Source of the DNA: Escherichia phage humlepung
Direction: 5' to 3' (one strand)
Sequence record: MN850564.1
DNA: 64,000 nt
Part shown: one piece after another, positions 18,888-57,331 of the stretch
Layout of the letters: each line of letters begins with the position of its first letter
Numbering within the stretch: the first letter of the stretch is position 1
The notes under the pieces: model-generated
Seen by the model: the letters and a program-made list of their open reading frames with translations, nothing else
Databases searched by the model: none
Told to the model about the DNA's origin: nothing
Position numbers and translations under genes: made by a program

Positions 18888-18888
18888 A

Positions 18889-19434
18889 TCAAAAGTGTCC
18901 TTTTACTTGTGGAACATAAATTTCAAAGGTTGCTTTACCATCATCTGAGGGTCTTGACTGCACCTTTGCAAATACACGGTTATCATACAGCTTATCAAAG
19001 AAGTTTTCAAAAGGTAAATACACAGTGGCTTCTTCAGTAACTTTATGGAAAACTGTATGAAAAACTACACCAGCATACGGTAAAGCATTGACAAGAACAC
19101 CTGCACCACCAATTACAAAAACATCTTCATCAATAGAGCTATCAAGATACTTCAAAAATGCTCCAAAGGATTCTTTACTGGCCTTAGCATACATTACATC
19201 ATCTTTGTCAAAATCTATGCCTAAGTATGGTACAGGATTTGTTAAGATGAGGTTTGCACGTTCTGGTAAAGGCTTACTCCCCAGAGTCTTAAAAGTCTCA
19301 TTACCCATGACTACTAAGTTGTTTTTAGTGAGTCTCTTAAACTCTTGCATATCTTGCTTATGTCGAGGCCACGGCATACCAGTTGGAGTACCAAATTCAC
19401 CGTTTTCACCACTTGCAAATATTAGCTTAATCAT
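18889..19434 (-). CDS. frd: dihydrofolate reductase
   Basis: 181 aa; GMPWP motif, VVMGNETFKTLG, VIGGAGV; adjacent to thyA. Confidence 0.8.
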   Translation of the reverse strand: MIKLIFASGENGEFGTPTGMPWPRHKQDMQEFKRLTKNNLVVMGNETFKTLGSKPLPERANLILTNPVPYLGIDFDKDDVMYAKASKESFGAFLKYLDSSIDEDVFVIGGAGVLVNALPYAGVVFHTVFHKVTEEATVYLPFENFFDKLYDNRVFAKVQSRPSDDGKATFEIYVPQVKGHF

Positions 19435-19691
19435 TTTGTAAACCCTTTCTTAATGAACCAGTTGATGACACTCTTCACAACTTTACTACGATGGTAGATA
19501 AAATGTGGAGAGGGTTGGTATGAACCATAAGCCCAGAAAGCGATAATTTCATTACACCCTGTGCATCGGGTACTTTCTTCAGCAATATGACCGTTGACTA
19601 TTTCACTTACCTCACCTTGTAAGTCTGTACACCCACAATGTGGACAACGGATAGGTGTTCCATCAGACTCATAGCAGTGTTCAATTTTCAT
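19431..19691 (-). CDS. small zinc-ribbon protein
   Basis: 86 aa; CPHCGC...CTGC; ATGA overlap with DHFR gene. Confidence 0.5.
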   Translation of the reverse strand: MKIEHCYESDGTPIRCPHCGCTDLQGEVSEIVNGHIAEESTRCTGCNEIIAFWAYGSYQPSPHFIYHRSKVVKSVINWFIKKGFTK

Positions 19692-20207
19692 CTATTTAAC
19701 CTCAAAAACTGGTTCAAGAACCAATATAAAGTCTACACAGTCATCTTCTTCATCCAGAATACCATCAAAGTTCTTAGGAACGAAGTCGAAGAGGCTCATA
19801 ACAAAACAGTCAGAAGTGACCTTGATAGTTCCTCCCATGTTCTCTACAGTTAACACTGTACGACTTTCTTTTACCTCCCTTAGAAGATTACCCACAAAGT
19901 CATCTAAGAAGTACTTCATCAATGACTTAAAACCTTTAGGATAATCTGTACCAGAGTATGTTTCAATCTGTGGTACAAGCTTAACATTTATACTAGTCTT
20001 TGTTAAGAACGTTTTAGAGAACATGCTATCAGGTAGCTTACAAACAGTCTTTCCAGTACCTTCATGTTCAATCTCAACAAAACCAGCTTCATCGCCACAT
20101 GTAACTATTTTAAAAGATGCTTCATTCTCATAATGTGAAGCCATAAACTTTTTAAGCATCTCTTTAAGGAAATCTGCATGAGCATCTTGTAAGAAGATAT
20201 CAATCAT
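19692..20207 (-). CDS. hypothetical protein
   Basis: 171 aa; RBS AGGTGA; coupled to downstream gene. Confidence 0.5.
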   Translation of the reverse strand: MIDIFLQDAHADFLKEMLKKFMASHYENEASFKIVTCGDEAGFVEIEHEGTGKTVCKLPDSMFSKTFLTKTSINVKLVPQIETYSGTDYPKGFKSLMKYFLDDFVGNLLREVKESRTVLTVENMGGTIKVTSDCFVMSLFDFVPKNFDGILDEEDDCVDFILVLEPVFEVK

Positions 20208-20220
20208 AGTTAATCACCTA

Positions 20221-20580
20221 TTATGGGAACAAGCACTTAATGTCGTCGTTTTTGAAAACAAAACTCGTGTAGTTATGACCATCAACATCCAGCCAAACAG
20301 CCTGAACATCCACACCATCAAGATTCTGGTAAAGCTCTTTGATGAAGTGGTCTTTCACAATCTGACTGCTAGTTGTCTCCAGCTTAATGTTTGAGATTGC
20401 TGAACCTACAGCCATATAACCCATGACACGTTTCTTCTCAGTATGCTTAATCTTACCATCTTTGTAAGCCATAATGAGATTGGAAAGAATCTTCACACCG
20501 TAGTACTTTTCAAGGTGAGTAGGTGCACCATAAAAGCCTAATGCGAAGTTTTCAGAGTGGATGATGTTTTCACGTTTCAT
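20221..20580 (-). CDS. hypothetical protein
   Basis: 119 aa; ATG 20580. Confidence 0.5.
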   Translation of the reverse strand: MKRENIIHSENFALGFYGAPTHLEKYYGVKILSNLIMAYKDGKIKHTEKKRVMGYMAVGSAISNIKLETTSSQIVKDHFIKELYQNLDGVDVQAVWLDVDGHNYTSFVFKNDDIKCLFP

Positions 20581-20581
20581 A

Positions 20582-20881
20582 TTAATCTGCCAACCTTAAA
20601 TTGAAATTAACACCAAATTTTTCACACACTTCCAACATATACTCAAGAGAGACATTGCCAGTGAGATGGATTATGTTGGATACGCGAGCCTGAGAGATAC
20701 CACAAATTTTAGCAACTTGCTCTTGAGAAAGACCTCTGGATTTAATCTCTCTCTTAAAACGATGTGCAACGAAGTCTCTCATTTCGTCTACACCCATTGG
20801 ACAAATATAACTCTCCATTTCAGCCTCTCTATCAGCCTCCCAATCATCTTGTGGAGCATAAGGGTCAAAAGCTTCATTCAT
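20582..20881 (-). CDS. helix-turn-helix (XRE-like) DNA-binding protein
   Basis: LSQEQVAKICGISQARVSNI HTH; start moved from track TTG (20911) to ATG 20881 with RBS. Confidence 0.5.
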   Translation of the reverse strand: MNEAFDPYAPQDDWEADREAEMESYICPMGVDEMRDFVAHRFKREIKSRGLSQEQVAKICGISQARVSNIIHLTGNVSLEYMLEVCEKFGVNFNLRLAD

Positions 20882-21086
20882 CTTTCTTCTTCCGTTTGCG
20901 TGAAGTGTCAATCAATGAATCTATGTTTGTAGCCCTAACCTTTTCACGTTCATCGTTAAGATAATCATCAAGAGCCTTTTCAATCTGTGAATCATCTTGG
21001 CAGATAACTGTAAAGACTGTAAAGCCATCTGTATCATCAATTATCTTACCATAACCGCTTCTGGGATGTAACTTTTTAAGAGCCAT
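20874..21086 (-). CDS. hypothetical protein
   Basis: 70 aa; ATG 21086; basic C-terminus. Confidence 0.45.
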   Translation of the reverse strand: MALKKLHPRSGYGKIIDDTDGFTVFTVICQDDSQIEKALDDYLNDEREKVRATNIDSLIDTSRKRKKKDE

Positions 21087-21087
21087 A

Positions 21088-21471
21088 TCAAATACCTGTG
21101 CAGCTTCTGTTTTCTAAGAAATACTCAACACCATACATAGCTTTTTGCATCAAATCTTCTTTAAACTGGATACGGTGGTTGAGCATAGCTTGTACATCAA
21201 TATCGTCATGGTGTTTCTCTTTAATATTTGCAGATTGCAGGAAATACTCTGCAAGAACACGATACTGGTAGTCAGTTACCTTATCAGTCATCTCTGTCAA
21301 AGACTCTTCAGAGATTGGTTTAAGTAGCTCACCATTAGCCAGAGCAACACCTTTTACAATCTGGCAAGTATCTTCTGGAACACCTGACAAGTCCACATTT
21401 GGAAGTTCTGTTGCATTGACTGGTAAATTCATTGTCATAACCATTGCAGCAGCTAATAAAATCTTTTTCAT
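21088..21471 (-). CDS. secreted protein with N-terminal signal peptide
   Basis: 127 aa; MKKILLAAAMVMTMNLPVNA signal-like N-terminus; RBS GAGGTC. Confidence 0.5.
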   Translation of the reverse strand: MKKILLAAAMVMTMNLPVNATELPNVDLSGVPEDTCQIVKGVALANGELLKPISEESLTEMTDKVTDYQYRVLAEYFLQSANIKEKHHDDIDVQAMLNHRIQFKEDLMQKAMYGVEYFLENRSCTGI

Positions 21472-21589
21472 AATGACCTCAAAGTTATATTAAATTTTGT
21501 ATTACGTTGAGTATAAAAATAAGCTATAACACCTGACTTGTCAACAGATTTTATAGCTTATTTGGCAGATTTTTTATAAGGCTACTGCC

Positions 21590-21830
21590 ATCCTTCCATA
21601 CTATACCCTACCAAACCGTACCTAACCTCACCCTACCGAACCGAACCGTACCTCATTAAAAGACCCTCTTTAAAGACCTTTTAAAAAGGTAAGTCTCATT
21701 TTAATGTAGCTGAGACTAACTACCCATACCAAACAGCACCGCACTATGCCTTACCCCACCTCACCGAGCCTCGCCCCACATCACTTAAAAACCCTTTTCA
21801 AAGACTCTTAAGTGATGTTGGTGAGTACCC
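21590..21830. repeat. G-poor degenerate tandem repeat (2 units of ~105 bp) in a 560-bp non-coding gap
   Basis: Two units of ACC/CCT-rich sequence each followed by TTAAAA(G/A)ACCCT...AAAGAC; hairpin GTCTCA...TGAGAC between them. Confidence 0.5.
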
Positions 21831-22032
21831 GTTGGTTTATGCTGCTCAGTATACTCACCAAATTTTCTATGTCAACAACTTTTTATAAAAAAGTTCTGAT
21901 AGCTATATGTGTCACGAAACAAAAGATTGTAAACAAGACACCCATTGCAAAAGATGTGTCCAAAAGCTTACTTGCAACGTATGACAATACAAAGACAACC
22001 AGTATAAACAGAATGACTGTACTGAACATAGT

Positions 22033-23133
22033 TTACTCATAATCCCTAATAACTAGCCCGACAGGGAACTGTAAAGAACCCTTACGAGTCATCTTCTGGA
22101 ACTGTACCGTTAAAGGCTTCCCGATAAACTCTTCAGGATGCTCAGCAAGATACTGTTTCTTCTCATGAGTAGTCTTCCATGATACATCTACAAAGACGTT
22201 AGGAAGAGTCTCTACAACGAACTTACCATGACCACGTTTATCAGTCTTTACACCAGTCACTTTAAACTCTTCAGTGTGCATCTTCTTGTGCTTAATCAAG
22301 AAGTATGAACGGTGACCACACTCATAGAAAGATTCTTCAGAGATTGAACGGTACATTGCACCTTCAAACTTAGCTTCAACCCACTTATCATGAGCTTCAT
22401 CAAATTCTTCCCAAGAATTTACACGACGAGACTTAACAGGAACAACTTTACAGCCATCTCTAAAGTCATTCAATGGTGAAGTCTCAATAATATCTCTACG
22501 CTCAGGCCACGTCTTAGTGCTGTCACAGATATCGTACCAGTAGAACTGGAGTAGATGTCGGTCTGGATTGTCAGCATTTTTAATCATAGACACAATATCT
22601 TCTAAGTCCCAACCATGAGCATAAATCTCACCATCAAAGTCTTCGACTTGTGGATGCAATTTAAGCAACAAAAGCAAATCTGGGATTAGTTCTGCTGGGA
22701 CGTTGTAAATAGTATTCTCACGAGAATAAGCCGTGAAGCTAACTAAATCAGCATCTCTTGAGATTCTACAACGTACACCATCAAGTTTTGGTTGAGCATC
22801 AGCAGGGAACTTCAGATACTTTGCATGACTAACCTTTGCAGCATCATGAGCAAGCTGTACACCTACCTTCTCAGTATTCTGTGCAGACTCTTTTGTGTAA
22901 GCATAACCTTTACGGTCAACTTGCTTTTTATACTTAGCAGCAACTTCAAAGAGAGCTTGCTGTTCAGCGTTACGCTCATTCTTTTTACCGATGTTCTTAG
23001 GCTCTGCTGTATACTCTTCAAACATCATCTTGCCATTCTCTTTACCATAGGTTGTAATAACTTTGTCACCTACAGCAACACATGACCAGACGTTGAAGGA
23101 ACCATCTTTATTTTGTTTGTACAGAATTGTCAT
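22033..23133 (-). CDS. ATP-dependent DNA ligase
   Basis: KLDGVRC motif I (KxDG); start set to ATG 23133 with GAGG RBS rather than track start 23169. Confidence 0.75.
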   Translation of the reverse strand: MTILYKQNKDGSFNVWSCVAVGDKVITTYGKENGKMMFEEYTAEPKNIGKKNERNAEQQALFEVAAKYKKQVDRKGYAYTKESAQNTEKVGVQLAHDAAKVSHAKYLKFPADAQPKLDGVRCRISRDADLVSFTAYSRENTIYNVPAELIPDLLLLLKLHPQVEDFDGEIYAHGWDLEDIVSMIKNADNPDRHLLQFYWYDICDSTKTWPERRDIIETSPLNDFRDGCKVVPVKSRRVNSWEEFDEAHDKWVEAKFEGAMYRSISEESFYECGHRSYFLIKHKKMHTEEFKVTGVKTDKRGHGKFVVETLPNVFVDVSWKTTHEKKQYLAEHPEEFIGKPLTVQFQKMTRKGSLQFPVGLVIRDYE

Positions 23134-23326
23134 TTTTAACCTCTGAGTGATACCAAGTATTGCAAGCATTACATGCGTAAAGCTCTAAGTCATTTTTATC
23201 TGGTTTGTGGAAACAGTTTGACCCACAACGACACCGGAATAGCTTACCATCAACACGAAGAATGAATGTTTCAAGCTCACCATCTTCTGTAAGAACTGCG
23301 TTCTTAAATTTATCTTCTACAGTCAT
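23108..23326 (-). CDS. small Cys-rich hypothetical protein
   Basis: 72 aa; CRCGSNCFH...CNACN zinc-ribbon-like. Confidence 0.45.
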   Translation of the reverse strand: MTVEDKFKNAVLTEDGELETFILRVDGKLFRCRCGSNCFHKPDKNDLELYACNACNTWYHSEVKNDNSVQTK

Positions 23327-23529
23327 TTTCTCTTACCACCAATCTCTACGTCGATAACTTGAACATCGCCAGCAACATCAAACTTATGAATGATGCTTTC
23401 CACAGTGTAAGTCCAACCCTCAATGCGAACCAACTCACCTTCTCGTGGGACGATTGGATTACGTTGAGCTACGGTTGTAGTGGAGTGAACAACATCATAA
23501 CAATAGATGTAGTTTACTAAGACTTCCAT
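23323..23529 (-). CDS. small hypothetical protein
   Basis: 68 aa from ATG 23529 with GAGGT RBS (the longer track ORF overlaps the lipoprotein gene). Confidence 0.4.
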   Translation of the reverse strand: MEVLVNYIYCYDVVHSTTTVAQRNPIVPREGELVRIEGWTYTVESIIHKFDVAGDVQVIDVEIGGKRK

Positions 23530-23539
23530 CGTGAAAACC

Positions 23540-23809
23540 TCACTCAATAACCGTAGTGTGTGATTGACCATTTTTGCCATAGCTATAAGATGTTGTTGTT
23601 TGGGAGTTTGGACATCTGACAACAACAATATCTCTGCTTATAGCATCACCATGTAACTTGTATACTTTGCAATCTTGCATCTCTGGTGGGAGACTGTAAG
23701 AAGCATTTTTATCTTCATAAGAAGGGTTGCAGCCAGATAGAAAAACAACACCAAGCGCAATTACTGCTTTCCACATAATACTTCCCCAGAGACTGTACAT
23801 TTTCTTCAT
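23540..23809 (-). CDS. lipoprotein (lipobox LSGC)
   Basis: 89 aa; N-terminus MKKMYSLWGSIMWKAVIALGVVFLSGC with lipobox Cys; RBS GGAG. Confidence 0.5.
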   Translation of the reverse strand: MKKMYSLWGSIMWKAVIALGVVFLSGCNPSYEDKNASYSLPPEMQDCKVYKLHGDAISRDIVVVRCPNSQTTTSYSYGKNGQSHTTVIE

Positions 23810-24024
23810 AGCAACTCCAGAATATCAATACGTTCGCCCTTAAGGACTCCAGTACGGTCTCTTGCAATCTTGCCGTCAACAATAAGGATATGTGCAGCCC
23901 TTAAAGAGTCACTATTAAAAGCTTTTACGAACTTACTAGGCATCACTACAATGGGCATCTCCTGAATCAACTCTGGAGTATAGCAATTGTCGTGAAGTTG
24001 CTGAATAACGTCTGCAAGTGTCAT
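23806..24024 (-). CDS. small hypothetical protein
   Basis: 72 aa from ATG 24024 (track start is TTG at 24039); RBS GGAGA. Confidence 0.45.
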   Translation of the reverse strand: MTLADVIQQLHDNCYTPELIQEMPIVVMPSKFVKAFNSDSLRAAHILIVDGKIARDRTGVLKGERIDILELL

Positions 24025-24230
24025 TTTTGATGTCTCCAATACTCAATGTCAATAAGTTCTTGTGCAATGCTTTTAAGGTTACCTTTCAAGAAAACCTTCT
24101 CAGAACCTGAAAGAGATGAATTGTCAATTAACCTGTTCATTCTCTCAAACAACTTCTGCTTACGATTTTTGATAGTCTCCTTTGAAGCACCTTTCATCAT
24201 TGCTGCATGGGTTCTTCCACGATGGCTCAT
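24021..24230 (-). CDS. small basic hypothetical protein
   Basis: 69 aa; strong RBS AGGAGGG. Confidence 0.5.
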   Translation of the reverse strand: MSHRGRTHAAMMKGASKETIKNRKQKLFERMNRLIDNSSLSGSEKVFLKGNLKSIAQELIDIEYWRHQK

Positions 24231-24281
24231 AATCCCTCCTATACAAGATGTAGTATAAGGTACTCTTCCCTGAGCACCTTG

Positions 24282-24785
24282 TCAACTTAGTTTTGCAAAC
24301 TCTCCGTGGAGTTTAATAGCAGCTTCACAGTAAGCTTTATGGGCTTCTTCTGGTGTGTCAAATAAACCAAGTGATGTCCTTTTACCTCTGCATGTTATAG
24401 CTGCCCTCCACTTATTGCAGTCTTTAAAGTAATGTACACCCTTGTAACCTGATTTGTTAGTCGTCTGCTTTACCCTATTTTGAGCATTTCCGTATTTATC
24501 AGTCTCCCTAAGATTAGAAATGTGATTATTACTTCTGTTACCATCAATGTGGTCTATCATCTTAGTGGGTTTGTAACCATGTTCGAACCACCAAACGAGG
24601 TGATGAATTTTTATTACGACATCTTTGAATTTAAGTACTTTGTAACCGTAAGCATCAGCACCTCCTGCAATCTGCCCAGCTTTAGCTTGTCTATTCCTGT
24701 CATACTTGTTGTAGAAGACCCCTTTGTCGGGGTCGTAAATAAAATTATCCTTGTAGTCTTGAAGTGTTAGTGTACGGCGTACCAT
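24282..24785 (-). CDS. HNH homing endonuclease with AP2-like DNA-binding domain
   Basis: IDHIDGNRSNNHISNLRE (HNH) plus YKGVHYFKDCNKWRAAI...LGLFDTPEEAHKAY (AP2-like); start overlaps the 3-prime end of the polymerase gene. Confidence 0.6.
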   Translation of the reverse strand: MVRRTLTLQDYKDNFIYDPDKGVFYNKYDRNRQAKAGQIAGGADAYGYKVLKFKDVVIKIHHLVWWFEHGYKPTKMIDHIDGNRSNNHISNLRETDKYGNAQNRVKQTTNKSGYKGVHYFKDCNKWRAAITCRGKRTSLGLFDTPEEAHKAYCEAAIKLHGEFAKLS

Positions 24786-27466
24786 GTCTTACCTACCTTA
24801 CCAGTGCCTGTAACAAGCGTCTTACTCTTTAATCCAAGATTTTTTGATGCTTGACCATACATTCTATCAATAATCTCCTTAACATCAGGTACATCTTTGG
24901 TTGGAACCTCTAAAGAGACCTCATCGTGGTAACTACAGACCCACCTAGCACCAATAGCTGGCTTCCTACCATTTAGAACTGTAAGCTTGCGCTCTGTTAA
25001 CTCCCTGTTAGCCAAGTTAATACCCTCATTCTGCACCTGCGCCTCACTGCCCATAAGTGTGTAATTCAATAACTTATGTGGAGATTTACACCATAACCAC
25101 GCCCCAGCAACCTTGATATAGCCACCTTTTGCAATTGCAGAAGTCTTTCCGAAAACCTCTTCAAGTGCTTTCTTAGTTGCTTTGAAGTCTTCCTCTAGTC
25201 TATCAAGCAGCTTTTTAATCTTAGGTAGACGCACAAAGTAAGTTTGTTTAGTCAATGCACCCTCTTCCGTAGATGATGCCTTGATAGTTTTTGCAAACTT
25301 CTCGTCTCCGGCTCCAAATAACAGGGCGTAGATGCCATTTTTGCTCTTCTTACGACCTTTTGTAATCTCGTGGAGAAGTTCCTCATCCTGTGTCTCCCTG
25401 CAACGAACAATATCCTCTTCTTTGTTAAGACCAAAGTAAATACTGTTCAGTGTATGCGCATCAGTCCCTGTGTAGACTTCATAGAGGTCATTTTCAGCAT
25501 CATAACGCAGATACTTGTCAGTTTCTGGGTTAAGATACTTGTCAAGATGTTTACAGTAGTATCTACCATCATCTTGCTTAGTGAACTCTACTGACTCTTT
25601 ACCCTCAGTTACCGCTTTAGTGAAGTCTTCATCACCCATAAAGTTACAAAGAAGAACTAGCTGGGCTGAGTTTTGGTCTACGGAGATGATATCTGTACCA
25701 TCTTCACAAGTCCACACCTCCCTCATAGGTGCTCCATAGACAGCAGCACCAGACGGTACGTTTACAATACCATATTGTGTCATACGTCCAGTTGAAGTGC
25801 CAAACACCATTGCACCAGCACTAAGGCGACCATCAGGACGAATCTGGTTCAACCAACCTTTTTCATCATCCTTTGAGTTCTCAATAGTTCTGCGTCGGTG
25901 CATCAAAGTATAGTACTTAGCAATCTTCTGTCCAAGCTCACCTTCAATCGTATCATAAGATGATTCAGTAAGTTTTGGTGAAGTACGGATTAAGCAAGGT
26001 TCAAGCAAATCTGTGTATTTCTTCACAGACCAGTTATGCTCGATGTACTGTACACCTTCATGTTCAACATAACTCAAACCACACCGCTCAACCATTTCCT
26101 GCCACTTAGGATGCTTTGTAATCATCTTTTTATTGTCTTTGAAACGACAAACTTTGATAGGGCGACCATCTGAGTCTTTCTTGTAATTCCAGTCATCTGG
26201 AATCCAACCAACTGATTTCAAGTAGTCTTTAACAACTGCTACCTGAGTCATACGAGAAACTTCAAACTCAATTGGTGTATATGGTGCATCAATCAAACCT
26301 GTGTAGCGACTTGACTCAAGTTCAAAGTGATTGACAACGTGACTGTTATAGTACTTCACAGTCTTGACTGTTTTTACTGGTTTCCAGTCTTTGCATTTTT
26401 TGCCAATCTTTGCATTCAACTCGTTGCAGATTGCACGAGCATCCTTCATCGCTACAAAACCCTCTTTGTACTCTTCACCAGTTACAGAGTTGGTTGGTGT
26501 ATAGCAATTTCTCTTTTCAATGTTAAAAATCTTTGTAGTTGGCTTACCAAATGGTTTGATTTCATAAGTCTGCATCTCACCATTACGTACCTGCTGACGA
26601 TACTTTGTCTTAGGGTACTTGGTAATTCTCTTCAGTCCATCTGCATGACCAAATGTTTCAACATACTCATTCCAAGCTTTTGCAAACTCTTCTCCAGTGA
26701 CTTTACCTTTGGTCTTAATAGTTGGAGGAAGATGTGGTTCAACCTCTGAAGCAAGTTCATTAGTCAATTTGTCAAGCTCCTTTACATGGAACTCCATAAG
26801 CTCCTTATCAGCTTTCCAACCATTGATAGCTTGCTGGCTCATCCAGAAAGATGTCTCTTTAGCTCGCATGTAAGTCTCATAAGTGTCTATACCACACTTC
26901 TTAAGCTTGAGATACTCGTTATCAAGTGCCCGTTTAGTTTTGGCATTAATACGGATATCTTCTACAACACGAGTGAAGATTTCTGCATTCCACACACCCC
27001 AATGTTCAATCTCTGGTTTACGGACACCAACACGAGCACCCCATGCAGCCAAACCATGAGCACCTTTATAACCCTTTGGGGTTGGCCTATCCATCCACTG
27101 AACACGAGACTGGATAAGAGAGTCCTGAAAGAAATTACTCCACGGTTTACACTTTGGATTATCAAAGTTCCATAAATCAGGTGCAATGTGATTGAAAACC
27201 CACCAGTCATAACCGAGACCATTATGGATGCAAAGACGTTTTGCCTTTAACGCAAATTCAACACCTTCACGTAAACCACCTTTGATGTACTTAGTGTACT
27301 TGTGACCGAGGATAGGCTCATCTGTAAAGACCCATACAGGTGGCTCTTCATCGTCAGATTTATAGTCTGCAAAGGCCATTACGTGAACTTTAGTGAACTC
27401 AAGGAGTAAACCATCAGTTTCTGTATCACCAACCAAATGTAAGTTTTTAAAATCTACGTTTTCCAT
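24767..27466 (-). CDS. DNA polymerase, family A (3-prime-5-prime exonuclease plus polymerase)
   Basis: 899 aa from ATG 27466 (RBS AGGGAG); DTETDGL exo motif, K...YG motif B (KNGIYALLFGAG), HDE motif C. Confidence 0.85.
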   Translation of the reverse strand: MENVDFKNLHLVGDTETDGLLLEFTKVHVMAFADYKSDDEEPPVWVFTDEPILGHKYTKYIKGGLREGVEFALKAKRLCIHNGLGYDWWVFNHIAPDLWNFDNPKCKPWSNFFQDSLIQSRVQWMDRPTPKGYKGAHGLAAWGARVGVRKPEIEHWGVWNAEIFTRVVEDIRINAKTKRALDNEYLKLKKCGIDTYETYMRAKETSFWMSQQAINGWKADKELMEFHVKELDKLTNELASEVEPHLPPTIKTKGKVTGEEFAKAWNEYVETFGHADGLKRITKYPKTKYRQQVRNGEMQTYEIKPFGKPTTKIFNIEKRNCYTPTNSVTGEEYKEGFVAMKDARAICNELNAKIGKKCKDWKPVKTVKTVKYYNSHVVNHFELESSRYTGLIDAPYTPIEFEVSRMTQVAVVKDYLKSVGWIPDDWNYKKDSDGRPIKVCRFKDNKKMITKHPKWQEMVERCGLSYVEHEGVQYIEHNWSVKKYTDLLEPCLIRTSPKLTESSYDTIEGELGQKIAKYYTLMHRRRTIENSKDDEKGWLNQIRPDGRLSAGAMVFGTSTGRMTQYGIVNVPSGAAVYGAPMREVWTCEDGTDIISVDQNSAQLVLLCNFMGDEDFTKAVTEGKESVEFTKQDDGRYYCKHLDKYLNPETDKYLRYDAENDLYEVYTGTDAHTLNSIYFGLNKEEDIVRCRETQDEELLHEITKGRKKSKNGIYALLFGAGDEKFAKTIKASSTEEGALTKQTYFVRLPKIKKLLDRLEEDFKATKKALEEVFGKTSAIAKGGYIKVAGAWLWCKSPHKLLNYTLMGSEAQVQNEGINLANRELTERKLTVLNGRKPAIGARWVCSYHDEVSLEVPTKDVPDVKEIIDRMYGQASKNLGLKSKTLVTGTGKVGKTWYAVH

Positions 27467-27723
27467 TTTTACTCCCTCTAAAATCATTAACCTCATACAT
27501 TACTGCAAAAAATTATAAAAAGCAAGTTGACAATGTACTTGACAAGGTGTTAATCTTTGCGAAGTGGGTTTTTACTTAAAAGGTCACTTAACAGTTTAAC
27601 TATACAGATACTTTAAAACTCTTAAAAGATTATTTAATAGCTTTTAAAAAGCTTTAAAGTATAACGTATAGAATACGTTAAGATAAAAGATTAAAACTTA
27701 ATAGTTACTTAAAAGAGGCTTAC
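27467..27723. promoter_or_regulatory. divergent intergenic control region with palindromic operator-like sites
   Basis: Between divergent pol and plus-strand operons; TTGACA x2; palindromes AGCTTTTAAAAAGCT and AACGTATAGAATACGTT (the latter contains a TATAGAAT -10-like element). Confidence 0.5.
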
Positions 27724-40648: not shown

Positions 40649-42793
40649 ATGAACAAAGTACAGATTATTAAAAAGAATGGCTCACTCGAAGAACCTGATA
40701 TCAAAAAAGTTTTAGCAGCAGTCACAAAGTCAGCTAATAGGGTTGGGTATAAAGAACTTCCATCAGATGTTACCCAAGCTCTTGAGTCAGCATTTATGAG
40801 GATTCTGGTAAAATCTACTAAGCAGAATAATTTACTCATTTCAGTAAATGATATTCACAGTATTGTTGAAGGTGCTTTGGCAGAAGTCAATCACGAGATT
40901 TATGAGTCTTACTCAACATATAGAAATTACCGTAAAGAGGTTGCTCAAAATTGGGATGAACTCTACCAGAAGACCAAAGATACACTCTTCTTAGGTGACC
41001 GAGAAAACGCTAATTTTGACAGCAGTTTAATTTCTACAAAAGGCTCAATTATTCGTGGTTACCTGACTAAAGAAATCTTTAAACAGTACCACCTAACACC
41101 AGAGGAACTTGAAGCCATTGAAAAAGGGTTTATCTATATCCATGATTTAAGAGACCTGATTTTTGGTGGTATCAACTGTTGCTTGTTTGACATTGGTAAA
41201 GTGCTGAAAGGTGGCTTTGAAATGTCTGGCATTGAATACTGTGAACCGAAGTCTGTACTGTCAGCCTTACAGGTTATTGGTGATGTAGTTCTTTCAGCAA
41301 CTGCACAGCAATTTGGTGGCTTTACTTTAGCAGAGATTGATAAGGTACTTGTACCGTATGCTAAGAAGTCTCTACGTTACCATGCTGAAAAAGCAACAGC
41401 TTATGGTATTCCTAAAGAACATTACCACAACTATGTCATGGAGCAGCTACAGATTGAATTAACTCAAGGTTTTCAGTCTCTTGAAATGAAGCTCAATACT
41501 GTGCCTTGTAGCCGTGGTGATTTTGCATTCACAACTTTGACATTCGGGTTACTTGACTCAGATATGTCTAATGAAGATAACCGACTGCAATACATGATTG
41601 CAAGCACTCTCCTAGATGTTCGTATGAATGGACAAGGTAAGAGCAAGAAGCCTGTTGTATTCCCTAAACTGGTTTATATTTATGACCAGAAGAGACATAA
41701 TGAGAATATCTGTCAAGGCCACCTGTACAGTAAAGCTATTGAGTGTTGCTCTAAAGCTATGTATCCAGATTTCTTAAGTGTATCTGGACATGGTGCTGTA
41801 GCAGAGGCTTTTGAGCATTCTGGTAAGGTAATTTCACCGATGGGTTGCAGAGCCTTCTTATCTCCATATCTTAATGAGGAAGGAGAAGAGTTCTACGTTG
41901 GTCGTGCTAACATTGGTGCTGTATCTTTGAACTTACCAATGATTTACCAGTATTCTAAAGAGAATGGTTTAGATTTCTGGAAAGAGCTTGATAAGTACCT
42001 AGAGATGATTCGCAGCTTCCACAAGAAACGTTACGAAATGATTGCTAATATGCCAGCAAGTTCTAACCCTCTTGCATTCACACAGGGTGGTCTGTACAAA
42101 GGGAATAAGAAACCTACTGACAGGGTTGGTTGGGATATTGTGAAGTCCTTCACAGCTTCTTTTGGGGTTACTGCGCTTGATGAGCTATCTGTTCTTGCTG
42201 AAGGTAAACGACTTCATGAAGTCGGAAGCTGTAGTTTTGCATACGATGTTCTGGAATACATCAACATGAAAACTGAAGAGTTTAAAAATGAAGATGGCTT
42301 CTTATATGCAGTCTATGGCACTCCAGCAGAATCACTTTGTGGAACTCAGCTAAAACAGTTCAGAGATATGTTTGGCGTTATTAAAGGTGTCTCTGACAAG
42401 GAATACTTTACAAACAGTTTCCATATGAATGTTGCAGCAGACATCTCACCATTTGAGAAGCAGGACTTAGAAGAGCCATTCTTCCATATCTGTAGAGGTG
42501 GTAGAATCCAGTATGTAAGGGTAGCTAACCCAGAAAACTTAACAGCACTTAAAAGTTGTATTACCAGAGGGATGTTGAAGGGTTTTTATCAGGGACTTAA
42601 CTTTGACTTAGCAATCTGTGAACATTGTGGTAACAGACCAAAGGCTGATGTTGAAGAATGTGAGGTTTGCCATTCACATGATATCTCTGTGATTAACAGG
42701 GTGTGTGGGTACTTGTCATTCACAAAAATTAAAGGTCAGTCTCGAATGAATGACGCTAAGATGGCAGAAATTAAGGATAGGGTTTCTATGTAG
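40649..42793 (+). CDS. nrdD: anaerobic ribonucleotide reductase (class III)
   Basis: 714 aa; C-terminal glycyl-radical motif RVCGYL and zinc-ribbon CEHCG...CEVCHS. Confidence 0.85.
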   Translation: MNKVQIIKKNGSLEEPDIKKVLAAVTKSANRVGYKELPSDVTQALESAFMRILVKSTKQNNLLISVNDIHSIVEGALAEVNHEIYESYSTYRNYRKEVAQNWDELYQKTKDTLFLGDRENANFDSSLISTKGSIIRGYLTKEIFKQYHLTPEELEAIEKGFIYIHDLRDLIFGGINCCLFDIGKVLKGGFEMSGIEYCEPKSVLSALQVIGDVVLSATAQQFGGFTLAEIDKVLVPYAKKSLRYHAEKATAYGIPKEHYHNYVMEQLQIELTQGFQSLEMKLNTVPCSRGDFAFTTLTFGLLDSDMSNEDNRLQYMIASTLLDVRMNGQGKSKKPVVFPKLVYIYDQKRHNENICQGHLYSKAIECCSKAMYPDFLSVSGHGAVAEAFEHSGKVISPMGCRAFLSPYLNEEGEEFYVGRANIGAVSLNLPMIYQYSKENGLDFWKELDKYLEMIRSFHKKRYEMIANMPASSNPLAFTQGGLYKGNKKPTDRVGWDIVKSFTASFGVTALDELSVLAEGKRLHEVGSCSFAYDVLEYINMKTEEFKNEDGFLYAVYGTPAESLCGTQLKQFRDMFGVIKGVSDKEYFTNSFHMNVAADISPFEKQDLEEPFFHICRGGRIQYVRVANPENLTALKSCITRGMLKGFYQGLNFDLAICEHCGNRPKADVEECEVCHSHDISVINRVCGYLSFTKIKGQSRMNDAKMAEIKDRVSM

Positions 42794-42800
42794 AATACAA

Positions 42801-43358
42801 ATGAATTACGAACTAATATATAATGCAATTATTAAGAAGGCACATTCTGAAAGGGGTGTGCCTCTTACATACTACAAATGTCAAGGTAAGGGTTATGAAA
42901 GACACCATATCATACCAGTGTGTCTAGGTGGCGATAAAATTAGTGGAGATAATATTGCTCTACTTACACCTAGAGAACATTATATAGCTCATAAATTACT
43001 GGTTAAGATGTATCCAAACAACCACAAGTTATGGTTTGCATGGAACAGACTAGCTCATGATGGCCTAGATAGGAAAATATCATCCAGAGACTATGAAAAG
43101 GTAAGGGCTTTGAACTCGAAAGCTTTATCTATTGTGAATAAAGGTAGGGTTTTCACTGAAGAACATCGAAGACGATTAGGAGAATCTCAAATAGATAATA
43201 CAAAATCAAAAGGTTGTAAAAGGTCTATAGAAACAAGGAAGAGGATGTCAGAAGCCGGAAAAAAGCCAAAGAAAAAGAAAACTTGCCCTCATTGTGGTAT
43301 GACTGGTGGTGCTGGTAACATGACTCGATATCATTTTGACAATTGTAAGAAAAAATAA
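42801..43358 (+). CDS. HNH homing endonuclease
   Basis: YERHHIIPVCLGGDKISGDNIALLTPREHYIAH; start at ATG 42801; inserted between nrdD and nrdG. Confidence 0.6.
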   Translation: MNYELIYNAIIKKAHSERGVPLTYYKCQGKGYERHHIIPVCLGGDKISGDNIALLTPREHYIAHKLLVKMYPNNHKLWFAWNRLAHDGLDRKISSRDYEKVRALNSKALSIVNKGRVFTEEHRRRLGESQIDNTKSKGCKRSIETRKRMSEAGKKPKKKKTCPHCGMTGGAGNMTRYHFDNCKKK

Positions 43359-45182: not shown

Positions 45183-45503
45183 ATGAGCAAAGTTTATAAC
45201 ACTCGCAAATTACAGATTTTCGTACTGTGCCAGTTTATGGCTAAAGAATACAACTTCTACTATTGTGGTACAGGTTTTATTAGTGATGATGATGGCTCAT
45301 ACCTCCCATTCAAAGAAGCTGTAAAACTCTTTAATGAAGAGAAAAGCTCTAAGAAAGATATTGAAAAGGTTAAGCTAACTTACAGCAAGAAAGATAAGAA
45401 GATTATCTGCCTAGATAACTTTGTGAAAGTTACTGGAGAAGCAAAAGAGTTTATGGATGAGAGTGAGATTTCATTCACAAGCATCTTGAAAGTAGCTCAG
45501 TAA
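45183..45503 (+). CDS. hypothetical protein
   Basis: 106 aa; coupled start. Confidence 0.45.
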   Translation: MSKVYNTRKLQIFVLCQFMAKEYNFYYCGTGFISDDDGSYLPFKEAVKLFNEEKSSKKDIEKVKLTYSKKDKKIICLDNFVKVTGEAKEFMDESEISFTSILKVAQ

Positions 45504-45516
45504 ACAGATACTATAA

Positions 45517-45542
45517 GGGAACTGTAAAGGTTCCCTTTTTAT
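45517..45542 (+). terminator. rho-independent terminator
   Basis: GGGAAC-TGTAAAG-GTTCCC followed by T5. Confidence 0.55.
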
Positions 45543-45554
45543 TTTGGAGATAAT

Positions 45555-46070
45555 ATGTACCTGTCAAACCTGAAACGTTCTGCTGCAATGTCAGTGTTAA
45601 GACTCAGCTTTGAGGAACGTCAAGAGTTCATTGACTCCCACCAATATGACCCTTCAAACTCTAATCACATGATTCTCTGGAATCGTGATAGCACTCGTGA
45701 AAGAGCACTATTCCGCTACTACCCACACTACACCATAGACAACCTGTATGAATGTTTTGTTGTGAAGAACACCATTACAGTACTCAATAAACTTTGCAGA
45801 TACACAGGTAGTCAATCCTTCACATTAGGCCACCACAAACCTGTTACAAAGGGTGGTGAGCATCACTGTGCAAACTGGTTTATCCAGACTAAACTTGATA
45901 ACCAGAAGCAAGGAGATAACCTTCTAAGCACTCCTAAGATGACCTATGAAGAGCAAGAGAAATATATCAAAAATAATATGCCAGATGTGCTTGACAACAA
46001 CTATACAGATTTGGCAATATCTCTCCTGTTGAAGTTCGAGACAGTTTATAGGGCGACTTACAATGGCTAA
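45555..46070 (+). CDS. HNH endonuclease (putative homing endonuclease)
   Basis: LGHHKPVTKGGEHHCANW...N HNH-like motif; RBS GGAGA. Confidence 0.5.
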   Translation: MYLSNLKRSAAMSVLRLSFEERQEFIDSHQYDPSNSNHMILWNRDSTRERALFRYYPHYTIDNLYECFVVKNTITVLNKLCRYTGSQSFTLGHHKPVTKGGEHHCANWFIQTKLDNQKQGDNLLSTPKMTYEEQEKYIKNNMPDVLDNNYTDLAISLLLKFETVYRATYNG

Positions 46071-46341
46071 AGAAAAGTGGGAGATTTTACCACTAGTTAG
46101 TGAAGGCGGTAATGGTTGTGAAATGTACATGATACGTGGTCATGTTCCAGAACCAATTGCACTTGAGATGGTAAACAACTTTACAGATGGCTCTTACAAA
46201 GACTTAGGGGAGCCAACTATAAAGCAGCAATGGGTAAAGCCTGTACCAGACAGCACAGGTAACTGTAGTGTACTTTATCACGTTGTAGACCCTGCAAAAT
46301 GTAAATCTGCAATGGCAGTAACAAACGTAACTTTTGATTGA
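46063..46341 (+). CDS. hypothetical protein
   Basis: 92 aa; overlapping start. Confidence 0.45.
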   Translation: MAKEKWEILPLVSEGGNGCEMYMIRGHVPEPIALEMVNNFTDGSYKDLGEPTIKQQWVKPVPDSTGNCSVLYHVVDPAKCKSAMAVTNVTFD

Positions 46342-46352
46342 GAGAGAAAACT

Positions 46353-47234
46353 ATGAAAACTGTTATTGAAGCCGTCGTCACCGCACAAGAGAAATTCTTC
46401 CACACAGAAAAATTTAATATCATTCAATTCCCATCTGGAGAAATTGGTGGAAACTTCTCTGAAGATTTTGTTAAGTTTACTGAGCGTAATGCTGGTAAGA
46501 TTGATAATGTTATAATTACTGTACAGGGATATGACAAGGATACACTGTTTGCATTAGCTTTGGCTAAGGATGCCGTTGACAGTCTTGTTCCCCAGAAATC
46601 AGCGATGAAAACCGTTGTTTTCGGGTTCTTACCAAATGCTCGATATGACCGCCACATGTTCAAAGGTGATGCAGCAGCACTGAAAGTCTTTGCCAACCTA
46701 GTTAATGCAATGGGCTTTGATGCAGTATGTGCTCTTGACCCTCACAGTAATGTTGCAGAAAACTTATTTAAGTGTTTTCAGAGCATGAAGCAAAAAGATG
46801 TGGCAGTACACTTTGCAAGTGACCCACGCATTGATTTCTTGGTAGCCCCAGATGCAGGTGCAGCTAAGAAGACTGAAGATGCCGCTAAAGAGGTGGATAA
46901 ACCATATATCACAATGTCTAAGGTGCGCAATCTTAAGACTGGAGAAATCACTGGTATGCGAATCCTTGACGATGTTGATTTGACCGATAAAACTGTCATG
47001 ATTCTTGATGATATCTGTGATGGTGGTCGAACCTTCGTAGAGGCAGCTAAACACCTACGTGAAGCAGGTGCAAAACGTGTGGAACTCTATGTAACTCATG
47101 GTATTTTCTCTAAAGGTGTTGAAAACTTACTTGACAATGGTATTGACCATATCTACACTACAAACACTTTAGGTGAAGCTAAAGACCGTGGCTTAACACA
47201 TTACGCCCAAGTTACTGTAGCAACCATTGATTGA
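46353..47234 (+). CDS. ribose-phosphate pyrophosphokinase-like enzyme (candidate ADP-ribose pyrophosphokinase of NARP1)
   Basis: PRTase-type PRPP/ribose-phosphate binding loop VMILDDICDGGRTF; start ATG 46353 after GAGAGAGAAAA (track start TTG). Confidence 0.7.
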   Translation: MKTVIEAVVTAQEKFFHTEKFNIIQFPSGEIGGNFSEDFVKFTERNAGKIDNVIITVQGYDKDTLFALALAKDAVDSLVPQKSAMKTVVFGFLPNARYDRHMFKGDAAALKVFANLVNAMGFDAVCALDPHSNVAENLFKCFQSMKQKDVAVHFASDPRIDFLVAPDAGAAKKTEDAAKEVDKPYITMSKVRNLKTGEITGMRILDDVDLTDKTVMILDDICDGGRTFVEAAKHLREAGAKRVELYVTHGIFSKGVENLLDNGIDHIYTTNTLGEAKDRGLTHYAQVTVATID

Positions 47235-47243
47235 AACTTTATA

Positions 47244-47265
47244 GGGGCTTGAAAGCCCCATTTTG
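47244..47265 (+). terminator. putative terminator/attenuator between the Prs-like and NAMPT-like genes
   Basis: GGGGCT-TGAA-AGCCCC followed by ATTTTG. Confidence 0.4.
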
Positions 47266-47279
47266 AGAGAGATTAAAAG

Positions 47280-49061
47280 ATGACTAAATCGCTTTACGCA
47301 GTACCAGCAGGTTTAAACGCAGATGCTTACAAATCTGGTCATGTTTACCAGTACCCTAGTGCAACAGAATACTTGATGTTCAACCTGACACCACGTAGTG
47401 ACAAATGGTTTAACAGCCCCTTAGCAATTGATGGTGTAGTAGCTTTTGGTATTCAACGTTTCGTTAAAGATTACCTGATAGACCACTGGAACGCCACTTT
47501 CTTTGAACGTGATAAAAAAGAAGCAATTGACGAAATCTTAGAAGTTATGAATGGTGTTCTGGGGAAAGATGCTATCGGTCGAGAGCATTGGGAAGCACTT
47601 CACGACTTAGGTTATCTACCAGTTGAAGTGTACGCTGTAGAAGAAGGCACAGTTGTCCCGATGCGTGTCCCAATGATTGTCTTCCAGAACACTGTTTCAG
47701 GTTTCCATTGGGTAGCAGGTTATCTAGAAGACGCTTTCTCTGCTGAGATTTGGAAGACTTGCACCATTGCAACTATTGCATTGCACTACAAACGTATCTG
47801 TAAGAAGTGGGCTGACCTTACTTGCGACAATGAATTACATTTACCTTATCAGTGCCATGACTTTGCTATGCGTGGTATGTCCGGCTTTACCGATGACGCA
47901 TTTAATGCTGTAGGTCACTTAACCAGCTTTAAAGGAACTGATAGCTTCCCTGCTGTATACACGGCTAAACGCATCTATGGACAGTCTTACCCAATTTCTG
48001 ATATTGGTAGTTCTGTACCAGCCACTGAACACTCTGTAATGTGTGCAAACATTGCTTGGGAAGGTGGTAATGAATTGATTGAAGAGGAAAGACGCTTTAA
48101 AGGTGAGTTGCAAACCTTCCGTCGTTTCTTAACAGAAACTTACCCAACTGGTATTGCAAGTATTGTTTCAGATACTTATAACTTCTGGAGAACTGTGTCA
48201 GAAATCTTACCAGCACTTCGTAAAGAAATTATGGAACGTGATGGTAAGCTGGTAATTCGCCCTGACTCTGGAGACCCTGTACATATTGTCACAGGCTATA
48301 AAGCAATCCACTTAGAGTGTGCTAAGAAGGCTTATTACGAACACTTAAGCAAGCTTGAAGCCAGCGACACAATGTTGAATGCTGTTCTGAACATGAAGCT
48401 TGAAAACATCAATTATGGTATTGCTGGATGGCTACTGTCAGAAGGCTACGAAATGGTTGTTGACAGAGAAGACTTTGAAGTTGCTGATACAGTGCTGTTG
48501 AAAAACGCTTATATGGTTGGTTCTGCAAACGTTGTAACACGTCCTGTAGCTGAGATTGATGGAGCTATTAAGACACTGTACAACATCTTTGGGGGAACTA
48601 TTAACTCTAAAGGGTTTAAGGTACTGGATGAGCATATCGGACTTATCTATGGTGACTCTATCACGCTGGAACGTGCAAACGAAATCCTGAAGCGTCTGTA
48701 TGAAATGGGTTTTGCAAGCTCTAACGTAGTGTTTGGCGTAGGTTCTTACACTTACCAGTACATGACTCGTGACACCTTTGCATTTGCTGTCAAAGCAACT
48801 CTTGCAAGCATTGGTGGTAAAGAGATTATGCTTGCAAAAGACCCTAAAACAGATAGTGGTGTTAAGAAATCTGCCTTTGGTGGTGTAGCACCTATGTGGG
48901 ATGGTGACAAGCTGAAAGCTATAGATGGCTATGGATTCCAGAGTTTTGCAGATGTACTTGACCACCCAGCTTGTGCCTTACGTTTAGTCTTTAGTGACTC
49001 TGAGCAGTTCGGTTACACAACTCTTGGGGATATTCGAAATAATATTGACAAGCAGCTTTAA
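47280..49061 (+). CDS. nadV: nicotinamide phosphoribosyltransferase-like enzyme (candidate Namat of NARP1)
   Basis: 593 aa NAMPT/PBEF-family sized protein directly downstream of the Prs-like gene. Confidence 0.7.
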   Translation: MTKSLYAVPAGLNADAYKSGHVYQYPSATEYLMFNLTPRSDKWFNSPLAIDGVVAFGIQRFVKDYLIDHWNATFFERDKKEAIDEILEVMNGVLGKDAIGREHWEALHDLGYLPVEVYAVEEGTVVPMRVPMIVFQNTVSGFHWVAGYLEDAFSAEIWKTCTIATIALHYKRICKKWADLTCDNELHLPYQCHDFAMRGMSGFTDDAFNAVGHLTSFKGTDSFPAVYTAKRIYGQSYPISDIGSSVPATEHSVMCANIAWEGGNELIEEERRFKGELQTFRRFLTETYPTGIASIVSDTYNFWRTVSEILPALRKEIMERDGKLVIRPDSGDPVHIVTGYKAIHLECAKKAYYEHLSKLEASDTMLNAVLNMKLENINYGIAGWLLSEGYEMVVDREDFEVADTVLLKNAYMVGSANVVTRPVAEIDGAIKTLYNIFGGTINSKGFKVLDEHIGLIYGDSITLERANEILKRLYEMGFASSNVVFGVGSYTYQYMTRDTFAFAVKATLASIGGKEIMLAKDPKTDSGVKKSAFGGVAPMWDGDKLKAIDGYGFQSFADVLDHPACALRLVFSDSEQFGYTTLGDIRNNIDKQL

Positions 49062-49075
49062 AAGTATATGATAAG

Positions 49076-49100
49076 AGGCTCCTACGGGAGCCTTTTTAAT
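49076..49100 (+). terminator. rho-independent terminator
   Basis: AGGCTCC-TACG-GGAGCCT followed by T5. Confidence 0.6.
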
Positions 49101-49114
49101 TTCTGGAGAAAACT

Positions 49115-49450
49115 ATGAAAATCAAAGAGATGAACATCAACATTGTCTTAGAAGAACGTTGGGAGAACATCAAGAAGCCTGAAGATGGTCATAAGTTCCT
49201 TAACAAAATCTTGGTAGCAGCTAAAGAAGAACTGACTGGAAAGGTTGCAGCAGCAATCACAATAAAGGTTTGTGTAAAAGGTCTTCCACAACATCACCAG
49301 TTTGCACTTGACGAGTTTAAAGAAAGCTTCTACAATCCAAACAAACAGATGCTTGAAAGTAACTTTGCAGTATCTACAAGTATCGTTCATGACAGAAGCT
49401 TTATCCTTTACAAAAATATGAGAGGTGAGTCATGCAAGCATATTGGATAG
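49115..49450 (+). CDS. hypothetical protein
   Basis: 111 aa; RBS GGAGAA. Confidence 0.45.
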   Translation: MKIKEMNINIVLEERWENIKKPEDGHKFLNKILVAAKEELTGKVAAAITIKVCVKGLPQHHQFALDEFKESFYNPNKQMLESNFAVSTSIVHDRSFILYKNMRGESCKHIG

Positions 49451-49608
49451 AAATTTTACTGTCACTTGGTAGTGTAGCAGTATTTGTTTACCTCCTTTGT
49501 AAGTACTTTGCAGAGCACAAAAAATGTGACTACTGTAATGGAGAGGGGTACATAAGGGCAGGATGTTGCCCTATGTGTGGTGGTTCTGGTAAAATGTTTA
49601 ATAAGTAA
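49432..49608 (+). CDS. small membrane-anchored zinc-ribbon protein (58 aa, below ORF-track cutoff)
   Basis: ATG 49432 after AGAGGTGAG; hydrophobic N-terminus then CDYCNGEGYIRAGCCPMCGGSG (CxxC...CxxC). Confidence 0.4.
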   Translation: MQAYWIEILLSLGSVAVFVYLLCKYFAEHKKCDYCNGEGYIRAGCCPMCGGSGKMFNK

Positions 49609-56545: not shown

Positions 56546-57331
56546 ATGGGTATTGTAAAAATAATCAATGGTGATATCTTTGCCGAATTTGATAAAGGTA
56601 AGTTTGACATCATCGGTCACGGTTGCAACTGTATGAATTTAATGGGTGCAGGTATCGCTGACAAGATTTCTAAACTTTACCCAAAAGCATATGAGACCGA
56701 TACAGAAGTTTATCTATATGCAGGTGGTATAGGACACAAACCCTGTGAAAATTTACTGGGTAATTTCTCTGTAGCACGTTTAAAACAAGGTCGAATAGCT
56801 AACCTTTACACTCAGCTTAAGACTGGTAAAGATGCCCGATACAGTGCTTTAGAATCATCTTTGAAACAGCTTAACAGATACTGTGAAGTCAATCAGTTGA
56901 AGAAAGTCGGGTTACCTATGATTGGCGCAGGTATCGGTGGACTAGACCCTCAAGCCGTCACAGTTATCATTAATCAGGTGATGAAGAGTGTAGATGTTTA
57001 TCTGTATGTCTACGAAGGAGAGATGTACCACAAGTTACGCTCAGGTTGGAATAACTACTGTGAACCAGAATACTTTGCAGGTGTAGTAATGTTCACAGAT
57101 GATACAGTTACCCTCTTCAGACGAAGAAAAGGTAAGATACATCAAAGTAACCCTCCGGTTGAGAAGATGTCTCTAAGTAACGCTCTAGTTACCCACCTGT
57201 CGAAGAGCAATCACAGAATTGCAGTAACATTTGGCAGTGATGCGGATACTTATATCTATGCAAGAACTGATGAGGATATCGAGTTAATCTTCTCTTCACC
57301 AGAGCTTACCTTCTTAGACGCAAAGAACTAA
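56546..57331 (+). CDS. macro-domain (ADP-ribose binding/hydrolase) protein with C-terminal extension
   Basis: N-terminus INGDIFAEF...DIIGHGCNCMNLMGAGIADKI fits the macro-domain GDI...NAAN...GGGV pattern; 261 aa. Confidence 0.55.
   Translation: MGIVKIINGDIFAEFDKGKFDIIGHGCNCMNLMGAGIADKISKLYPKAYETDTEVYLYAGGIGHKPCENLLGNFSVARLKQGRIANLYTQLKTGKDARYSALESSLKQLNRYCEVNQLKKVGLPMIGAGIGGLDPQAVTVIINQVMKSVDVYLYVYEGEMYHKLRSGWNNYCEPEYFAGVVMFTDDTVTLFRRRKGKIHQSNPPVEKMSLSNALVTHLSKSNHRIAVTFGSDADTYIYARTDEDIELIFSSPELTFLDAKN

Follow-up and report, generated by a model that had tools for sequence, protein, structure and literature searches.

Gene pair at positions 46353 to 49061

The 64,000-nucleotide stretch of Escherichia phage humlepung (MN850564.1) analyzed here, referred to below as the window, contains two adjacent plus-strand genes that almost certainly constitute the NARP1 operon of a Felixounavirus, a pathway for the reconstitution of nicotinamide adenine dinucleotide (NAD+). 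The upstream gene, adps (positions 46353 to 47234), is predicted to encode a PRPS-like ADP-ribose diphosphokinase of 293 amino acids, based on its near-identity to gp79 of phage JohannRWettstein (BASEL Bas63; hereafter Bas63), its Pfam domains, and its active-site residues. The downstream gene, namat (positions 47280 to 49061, stop codon included), is separated from adps by a spacer of 45 nucleotides and is predicted to encode a NAMPT-like nicotinamide ADP-ribose transferase of 593 amino acids, based on near-identity to Bas63 gp80, a match in the Protein Data Bank (PDB), and the fold of an AlphaFold2 (AF2) model.

The open reading frame (ORF) delimited mechanically for adps spans positions 46338 to 47234 and begins with a TTG codon at 46338. 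The ATG at position 46353 is preferred as the start codon, since it is preceded by a Shine-Dalgarno-like run (GAGAGAG) and is also the annotated start in Bas63. The Pfam domains identified were Pribosyltran (E = 9.8e-12) and Pribosyl_synth (E = 2.3e-10) in Adps and NAPRTase (E = 6.1e-35) plus NAMPT_N in Namat. In PHROGs, Adps matched phrog_619, "ribose-phosphate pyrophosphokinase" (E = 1.3e-99), and Namat matched phrog_448, "nicotinamide phosphoribosyl transferase" (E = 6.9e-202). The ORFs, Pfam, and PHROGs thus bear out the preliminary description of this DNA, according to which a Prs-like gene lies directly upstream of a gene for a 593-amino-acid NAMPT-family protein. The phosphoribosyltransferase (PRTase) loop that it had noticed in the Prs homologue, VMILDDICDGGRTF, was located at amino acids 215 to 228 of Adps (positions 46995 to 47036).

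Distribution and identity to the Bas63 operon

GenBank phage records were searched by megablast with positions 46000 to 49500 of the window as the query. The search matched 258 phage records (at a coverage of at least 80% in 226), and nearly all belonged to Felixounavirus, i.e., to FelixO1-like myoviruses of Escherichia, Salmonella, Shigella, and Citrobacter. Because both ORFs are conserved in the 258 records, the gene pair is far beyond what chance would produce. The best DNA match over the region was Escherichia phage nataliec (99.1% identity), and Bas63 was 96.4% identical. By its sequence, the window phage is a Felixounavirus, and the operon is kept throughout this FelixO1-like genus.

Some of the matching records carry unexpected host names. 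The Felixounavirus operon is found at positions 116652 to 120151 (95.3% identity) of the 147-kb record of "Staphylococcus phage SA1" (GU169904.1), and two "Campylobacter" records also match the operon region. These are probably mixed or mislabelled assemblies and do not reflect host range.

The two proteins are nearly the same as those of Bas63. Adps and gp79 (bas63_0079) share 290 of 293 amino acids, the differences being V88I, A177T, and A285G, and Namat and gp80 (bas63_0080) share 585 of 593; none of these three and eight substitutions falls at a catalytic or ligand-contact position. At the nucleotide level, the operons are 96.5% identical, and the codon differences (79 synonymous and 11 nonsynonymous) show a synonymous excess that indicates purifying selection on the coding sequences. 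The likeness extends to the genus, the gene order, the 45-nucleotide spacer with its hairpin, the flanking hairpins, and the neighboring ORFs. Bas63 differs in that its namat is followed by a further small ORF, bas63_0081, which is absent from the window.

It was on Bas63 genes 79 and 80 that Osterman et al. based their definition of NARP1 (Adps plus Namat) (bioRxiv 10.1101/2024.02.11.579819). In that study, the plaquing of Bas63 lacking genes 79 and 80 was ~20-fold lower on cells carrying SIR2-HerA, NAD+ was partly restored by wild-type Bas63 and not by the deletion mutant, and the compound designated ADPR-PP (m/z 720.010) was detected only for the wild-type phage in defense-carrying cells. 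The conversion of ADP-ribose and ATP to ADPR-PP and, upon addition of nicotinamide, to NAD+ was carried out in vitro with the SpbetaL1 homologues (bioRxiv 10.1101/2024.02.11.579819), which were used for these steps because Bas63 Adps "did not purify well." According to the literature, the effect of the Bas63 operon is independent of host PncC and NadR, and NARP1 also defeats type I Thoeris, DSR1, DSR2, and SEFIR and is carried by 4.3% of sequenced phages.

Signatures of Adps

Lysine 190 of Adps aligns with the catalytic Lys194 in the beta-hairpin of human PRPS1. The acidic PP-loop of the protein, D219-D220-I-C-D223, lies within the stretch LDDICDGGRTF and matches the DDICD loop of ICP1 Adps, in which the PP-loop residues are D212, D213, and D216 (structures in PMC13586617). 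The PRPS-like fold, the beta-hairpin catalytic lysine, and the DDxCD PP-loop are features shared with the Adps proteins of ICP1 and Vibrio phage K412. ICP1 Adps, compared here by its published residues, binds adenine via Phe18, Arg87, and Phe92 (PMC13586617). The K412 protein is ~36% identical to the window Adps over 194 amino acids.

Adps proteins are expected to lack the C-terminal alpha11-alpha12 module and the allosteric sites of PRPS. The window Adps is shorter (293 amino acids) than PRPS (315 to 326 amino acids), and the sequence alignment of the two stops near PRPS residue 289. Among the NCBIfam profiles, Adps passed only the cut-off of the broad TIGR01251 subfamily (139.6 versus 113). 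It scored below every NCBIfam Prs equivalog cut-off, the best being NF002095 with 115 bits, where 296 are needed.

Signatures of Namat

The closest PDB sequence match of Namat was the SpbetaL1 Namat (9w5w/9w5x; E = 1.6e-128), compared with ~1e-40 for mammalian NAMPT. An AF2 model built on an alignment of 27 relatives had a predicted local distance difference test (pLDDT) value of 92.6 and a predicted template modeling (pTM) score of 0.91, and its best fold match was again the 9w5x Namat, with a template modeling (TM) score of 0.95. The core elements checked were the nicotinamide sandwich Phe/Tyr, the Asp, the Arg-x-Asp, and the catalytic His. This Nampt-like core is present as D15, Y17, F195, R198, D221, H251, R327, and D329, all invariant across the 27 relatives; SpbetaL1 residues D13, Y15, F189, R192, D215, R306, and D308 correspond to D15, Y17, F195, R198, D221, R327, and D329, respectively.

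The feature that distinguishes Namat from Nampt is an adenine "selectivity clamp" (PMC12774641), and both of its parts can be recognized here. According to the published rule for the selectivity-clamp loop (SCL), an Arg at position 3 stacks on the adenine; if a Lys or Tyr is found there, the fourth residue does so, "e.g. Bas63 Namat" (PMC12774641). The candidate SCL of the window Namat is SDKWF (amino acids 40 to 44; positions 47397 to 47411, plus strand), with K42 as the third residue. Its S40-D41-K42-W43 sequence fits the rule, and W43 is the predicted adenine-stacking residue. The selectivity-clamp helix (SCH) was found by a regular-expression match to the consensus as GSYTYQYMTRD (amino acids 488 to 498; positions 48741 to 48773, plus strand). 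It matches the published Namat pattern GS-X-Phi-X-Phi-X-Phi-TRD. The third and seventh residues of the motif, Y490 and Y494, are aromatic, and residues G488, S489, Y492, T496, R497, and D498 are invariant in the 27 relatives.

The SpbetaL1 NARP1 (PDB 9w5w/9w5x; PMC12774641) resembles the window operon in its two-gene pathway and in the core fold, catalytic residues, and SCH pattern of its Namat. The two Namat proteins differ in sequence (Foldseek identity, ~38%), in the SCL, where SpbetaL1 uses R40 and the window protein K42-W43, and in length. The SpbetaL1 protein has ~495 amino acids, whereas that of the window has 593, with insertions of ~15 and ~85 amino acids.

The short insertion, seen in the alignment with the ~495-amino-acid form, covers about amino acids 258 to 272 (about positions 48051 to 48095, plus strand). 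The larger, lineage-specific insertion covers about amino acids 340 to 427 (positions 48297 to 48560, plus strand) and was delimited from the multiple alignment and from the gap in the alignment with 9w5w between residues 343 and 428. In the AF2 model it forms an alpha/beta subdomain with pLDDT values mostly of 92 to 96 and of 83 at amino acids 391 to 400. When the ~85-amino-acid insertion alone was used in a tblastn search, all of the matches lay within Namat genes, and these came from 253 Ounavirinae records. It is 48% identical to its counterpart in Citrobacter phage Moogle, while the whole proteins of that clade are ~75% identical; by this comparison, the insertion evolves faster than the Namat core. 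A fold search with the whole Namat model returned only NAMPT-family chains without the insertion, and the Namat structure paper (PMC12774641) does not mention it.

Search for a salvage partner and for accessory genes

In the classical NadV-NatV route, an NMNAT would be expected to complete the pathway. A six-frame motif scan of the window detected neither a Nudix box nor the NMNAT (H/T)xGH motif. The Pfam scan, which covered the 59 ORFs between positions 17988 and 63509 and left the structural-gene block at 211 to 17305 outside, detected no CTP_transf_like and no NUDIX domain. The annotation of the complete 89-kb nataliec genome likewise lists no NMNAT or Nudix protein. These window scans agree with the preliminary description, which had seen no NMNAT or Nudix partner in the window; it had also named an NMNAT elsewhere in the genome as the finding that would speak for classical salvage, and none came to light in the scans or in the nataliec annotation.

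In other phages, NARP1 is extended by Macro (Adpp) and RyR (RyDEP) genes. In Pfam and PHROGs, no Macro domain was found in the ORFs at 45183 to 46341 and 49115 to 49608 and no RyR domain in the immediate operon neighbors, and the flanking ORFs at 45555 to 46070, 46063 to 46341, 49115 to 49450, and 49432 to 49608 were accordingly rejected as accessory Macro/Adpp or RyR/RyDEP genes.

Since no NMNAT or Nudix protein was found and the neighboring genes lack Macro and RyR domains, the operon is best described as plain two-gene NARP1 and not as NARP2 or NARP1-AP. NARP2 (the KVP40 NadV/Nampt plus Nmnat-Nudix) and the bacterial Prs plus NadV have folds homologous to those of the window proteins and bear the same database names, but here no Nmnat was found, the adenine clamp is present, and Adps does not reach any Prs equivalog cut-off. 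No phage in the study by Osterman et al. combined NARP1 with NARP2. NARP1-AP (Adps-Adpp-Namat of Vibrio phage Gary; bioRxiv 10.64898/2026.01.28.702374) shares the Adps and Namat core, but in the window there is no Macro gene in or beside the operon, the only one found being 7.5 kb away.

Proposed pathway and alternative explanations

In the pathway proposed for this operon, SIR2-, TIR-, or SEFIR-domain defense effectors would split NAD+ into ADP-ribose and nicotinamide. Adps would then transfer the beta,gamma-pyrophosphate of ATP to the 1'' hydroxyl of ADP-ribose, yielding ADPR-PP, and Namat, by Nampt-type chemistry, would exchange the pyrophosphate for nicotinamide, giving NAD+ directly, with neither a nicotinamide mononucleotide (NMN) intermediate nor an NMNAT. 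The NARP1 reading as such is already published, with genetics in a 99%-identical phage and structures in homologues. The preliminary description had favored NARP1 over the NadV-NatV route, a choice upheld by the 99% identity to the Bas63 operon and by the sequence signatures. In the comparison of profiles and structures that it had proposed, Namat is nearest to SpbetaL1 Namat by sequence and by fold, and Adps falls below the Prs equivalogs; the fold alone does not separate Namat from NadV.

Several points weigh against the assignment. The best TM score (0.95) is hardly above that of Haemophilus NadV (0.94), so fold similarity does not distinguish Namat from bacterial NadV, and the Felixounavirus Namat has two insertions that the solved Namat lacks. 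The case for the Felixounavirus enzymes rests on in vivo metabolites and homology, because the in vitro work used SpbetaL1 proteins and ICP1 Adps; by analogy with these homologues, we infer that the Felixounavirus Adps and Namat would show such activities in vitro. Namat homologues keep some activity in vitro in converting phosphoribosyl pyrophosphate (PRPP) to NMN, and this Namat may, by the same analogy, have a minor NMN-forming side activity.

If such NMN formation were the main reaction, the pair would represent classical salvage: the first enzyme would be a genuine PRPP synthetase and the second a NadV/Nampt whose product, NMN, would be turned into NAD+ by host NadR or PncC or by an unseen phage NMNAT. 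This is what the names in Pfam, PHROGs, NCBIfam, and the annotated matching GenBank records imply, and Namat passes the NF006629 equivalog cut-off. Nevertheless, we consider the explanation extremely improbable: no product was obtained when a homologous Adps was given the substrates of the Prs-type control (the text names "PRPP and ATP," the legend ribose-5-phosphate), the adenine clamp is present in Namat, Adps fails all of the Prs equivalog cut-offs, and neither the window scans nor the nataliec annotation yielded an NMNAT or Nudix protein. The operon could also act as a housekeeping booster that raises NAD+ for phage DNA metabolism irrespective of host defense, as does KVP40 NARP2, which lifts NAD+ even without a defense system. 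Its location in a nucleotide-metabolism region, after the genes for ribonucleotide reductase (RNR), NrdD, and NrdG, would suit such a role. NARP1, however, requires free ADP-ribose, Bas63 produced ADPR-PP only in the presence of SIR2-HerA, and the sole reported deletion phenotype was observed on defense-carrying hosts, making a general booster very unlikely.

A distant macrodomain gene offers another alternative to plain two-gene NARP1. The ORF at positions 56546 to 57331 (plus strand) encodes a protein of 261 amino acids with a Pfam Macro domain (E = 1e-7) and a match to PHROG 335, "phosphatase" (E = 1e-111). Its N-terminal 155 amino acids form a predicted macrodomain of the TARG1/DarG/Poa1p type. 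Were this protein to dephosphorylate the ADPR-1''-phosphate made by aRES and thereby feed ADP-ribose to Adps and Namat, the window would hold a dispersed form of NARP1-AP. The macrodomain type is compatible with that function, the protein shares 28% identity with the macro "phosphatase" of Vibrio phage K412 (NARP1-AP type), whose gene lies between those for Adps and Namat, and the published survey took in only Macro genes no more than two genes from NARP1 and would therefore have missed a gene placed like this one. Against this stand the distance of 7.5 kb, with about a dozen ORFs, between the gene and namat, the sole NCBIfam hit (DarG), and the presence of the family in 2847 phage records, a number well above that of NARP1 carriers. 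Moreover, the protein is ~35% identical (E value, ~1e-16) to the T-even Tk.4, and T4 Tk.4 has recently been given the name AdfM as a factor acting against DarTG2. Because the protein is closer to Tk.4/AdfM than to the K412 phosphatase, an anti-DarT role is more probable than an Adpp role. Adpp was thus rejected as the leading reading, as profile and fold searches place the domain equally near TARG1, DarG, and Poa1p and do not separate them, and we regard dispersed NARP1-AP as unlikely. The gene is likely a second counter-defense gene, independent of NARP1. A broader notion of extended NARP1, in which the unlinked macrodomain protein would supply ADP-ribose in trans from ADPR-1''-phosphate or from other ADPR conjugates, or in which amino acids 340 to 427 of Namat would add a regulatory or partner-binding function that the SpbetaL1 enzyme does not have, is likewise tentative and, in our judgment, improbable. 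The macrodomain protein also has a beta-rich C-terminal domain of ~100 amino acids, for which no PDB fold match was obtained; this extension was found only in Ounavirinae-like relatives.

Operon anatomy and neighboring ORFs

Three hairpins mark the operon and its surroundings. The consensus scan located a terminator-like hairpin followed by a T-run upstream (positions 45515 to 45537, plus strand), which is kept in Bas63, and another 12 nucleotides past the namat stop codon (positions 49073 to 49096, plus strand; -16.6 kcal/mol), which is identical in Bas63. In the adps-namat spacer, RNA folding (-12.6 kcal/mol) predicted a small G+C hairpin, GGGGCT-TGAA-AGCCCC (positions 47244 to 47259, plus strand), also kept in Bas63; it is followed by ATTTTG and by the Shine-Dalgarno-like GAGAGAG of namat and could serve as an attenuator or as a transcript-stabilizing hairpin. 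Each of the three hairpins (45515, 47244, and 49073) is preceded by a TATAAG or TATAGG-like string. The candidate terminators at 45515 to 45537 and 49073 to 49096 enclose four ORFs (45555 to 46070, 46063 to 46341, adps, and namat), and we infer that the two small upstream ORFs may be cotranscribed with adps and namat.

These two ORFs, at positions 45555 to 46070 and 46063 to 46341 on the plus strand, lie directly upstream of adps, overlap by 8 nucleotides, and have equivalents in Bas63 gp77 and gp78. The former encodes 171 amino acids with an HNH-like stretch, GHHKPVTKGGEHHCANW...NQK, and has a weak match to PHROG 2214, "HNH endonuclease" (E = 2.4e-4). The latter encodes 92 amino acids and received no annotation from Pfam or PHROGs.

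Two further features of the window were recorded. At positions 40649 to 43358 (plus strand), NrdD is encoded by one uninterrupted ORF of 714 amino acids, followed by an overlapping ORF for a NUMOD3/HNH-type endonuclease of 202 amino acids; in nataliec a homing endonuclease divides nrdD, and the Bas63 annotation presents nrdD as a two-piece join. These differences suggest that the genus is polymorphic for a mobile endonuclease. Positions 17988 to 27496 form a minus-strand block with genes for thymidylate synthase, dihydrofolate reductase (DHFR), DNA ligase, and DNA polymerase, with structural and nucleotide-metabolism modules of the plus strand on either side, and the GC skew reverses at ~18 to 28 kb.

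Annotation and implications

Every listed GenBank record with annotation names the pair ribose-phosphate pyrophosphokinase and nicotinamide/nicotinate phosphoribosyltransferase. In NCBIfam, Namat scores 469 bits on the equivalog "nicotinate phosphoribosyltransferase," for which 405 suffice, and Adps clears the cut-off of TIGR01251, "ribose-phosphate diphosphokinase"; automatic pipelines will therefore go on misnaming NARP1 genes. The recognition of the pair as Adps and Namat from the sequence was correct where the databases are outdated, and its value lies mainly in annotation. For phage therapy, tolerance of aRES is probably absent, the product of aRES being ADPR-1''-phosphate. The operon predicts that this phage would tolerate defenses that cleave NAD+ to ADP-ribose and nicotinamide, such as SIR2-HerA, DSR1, DSR2, type I Thoeris, and SEFIR.

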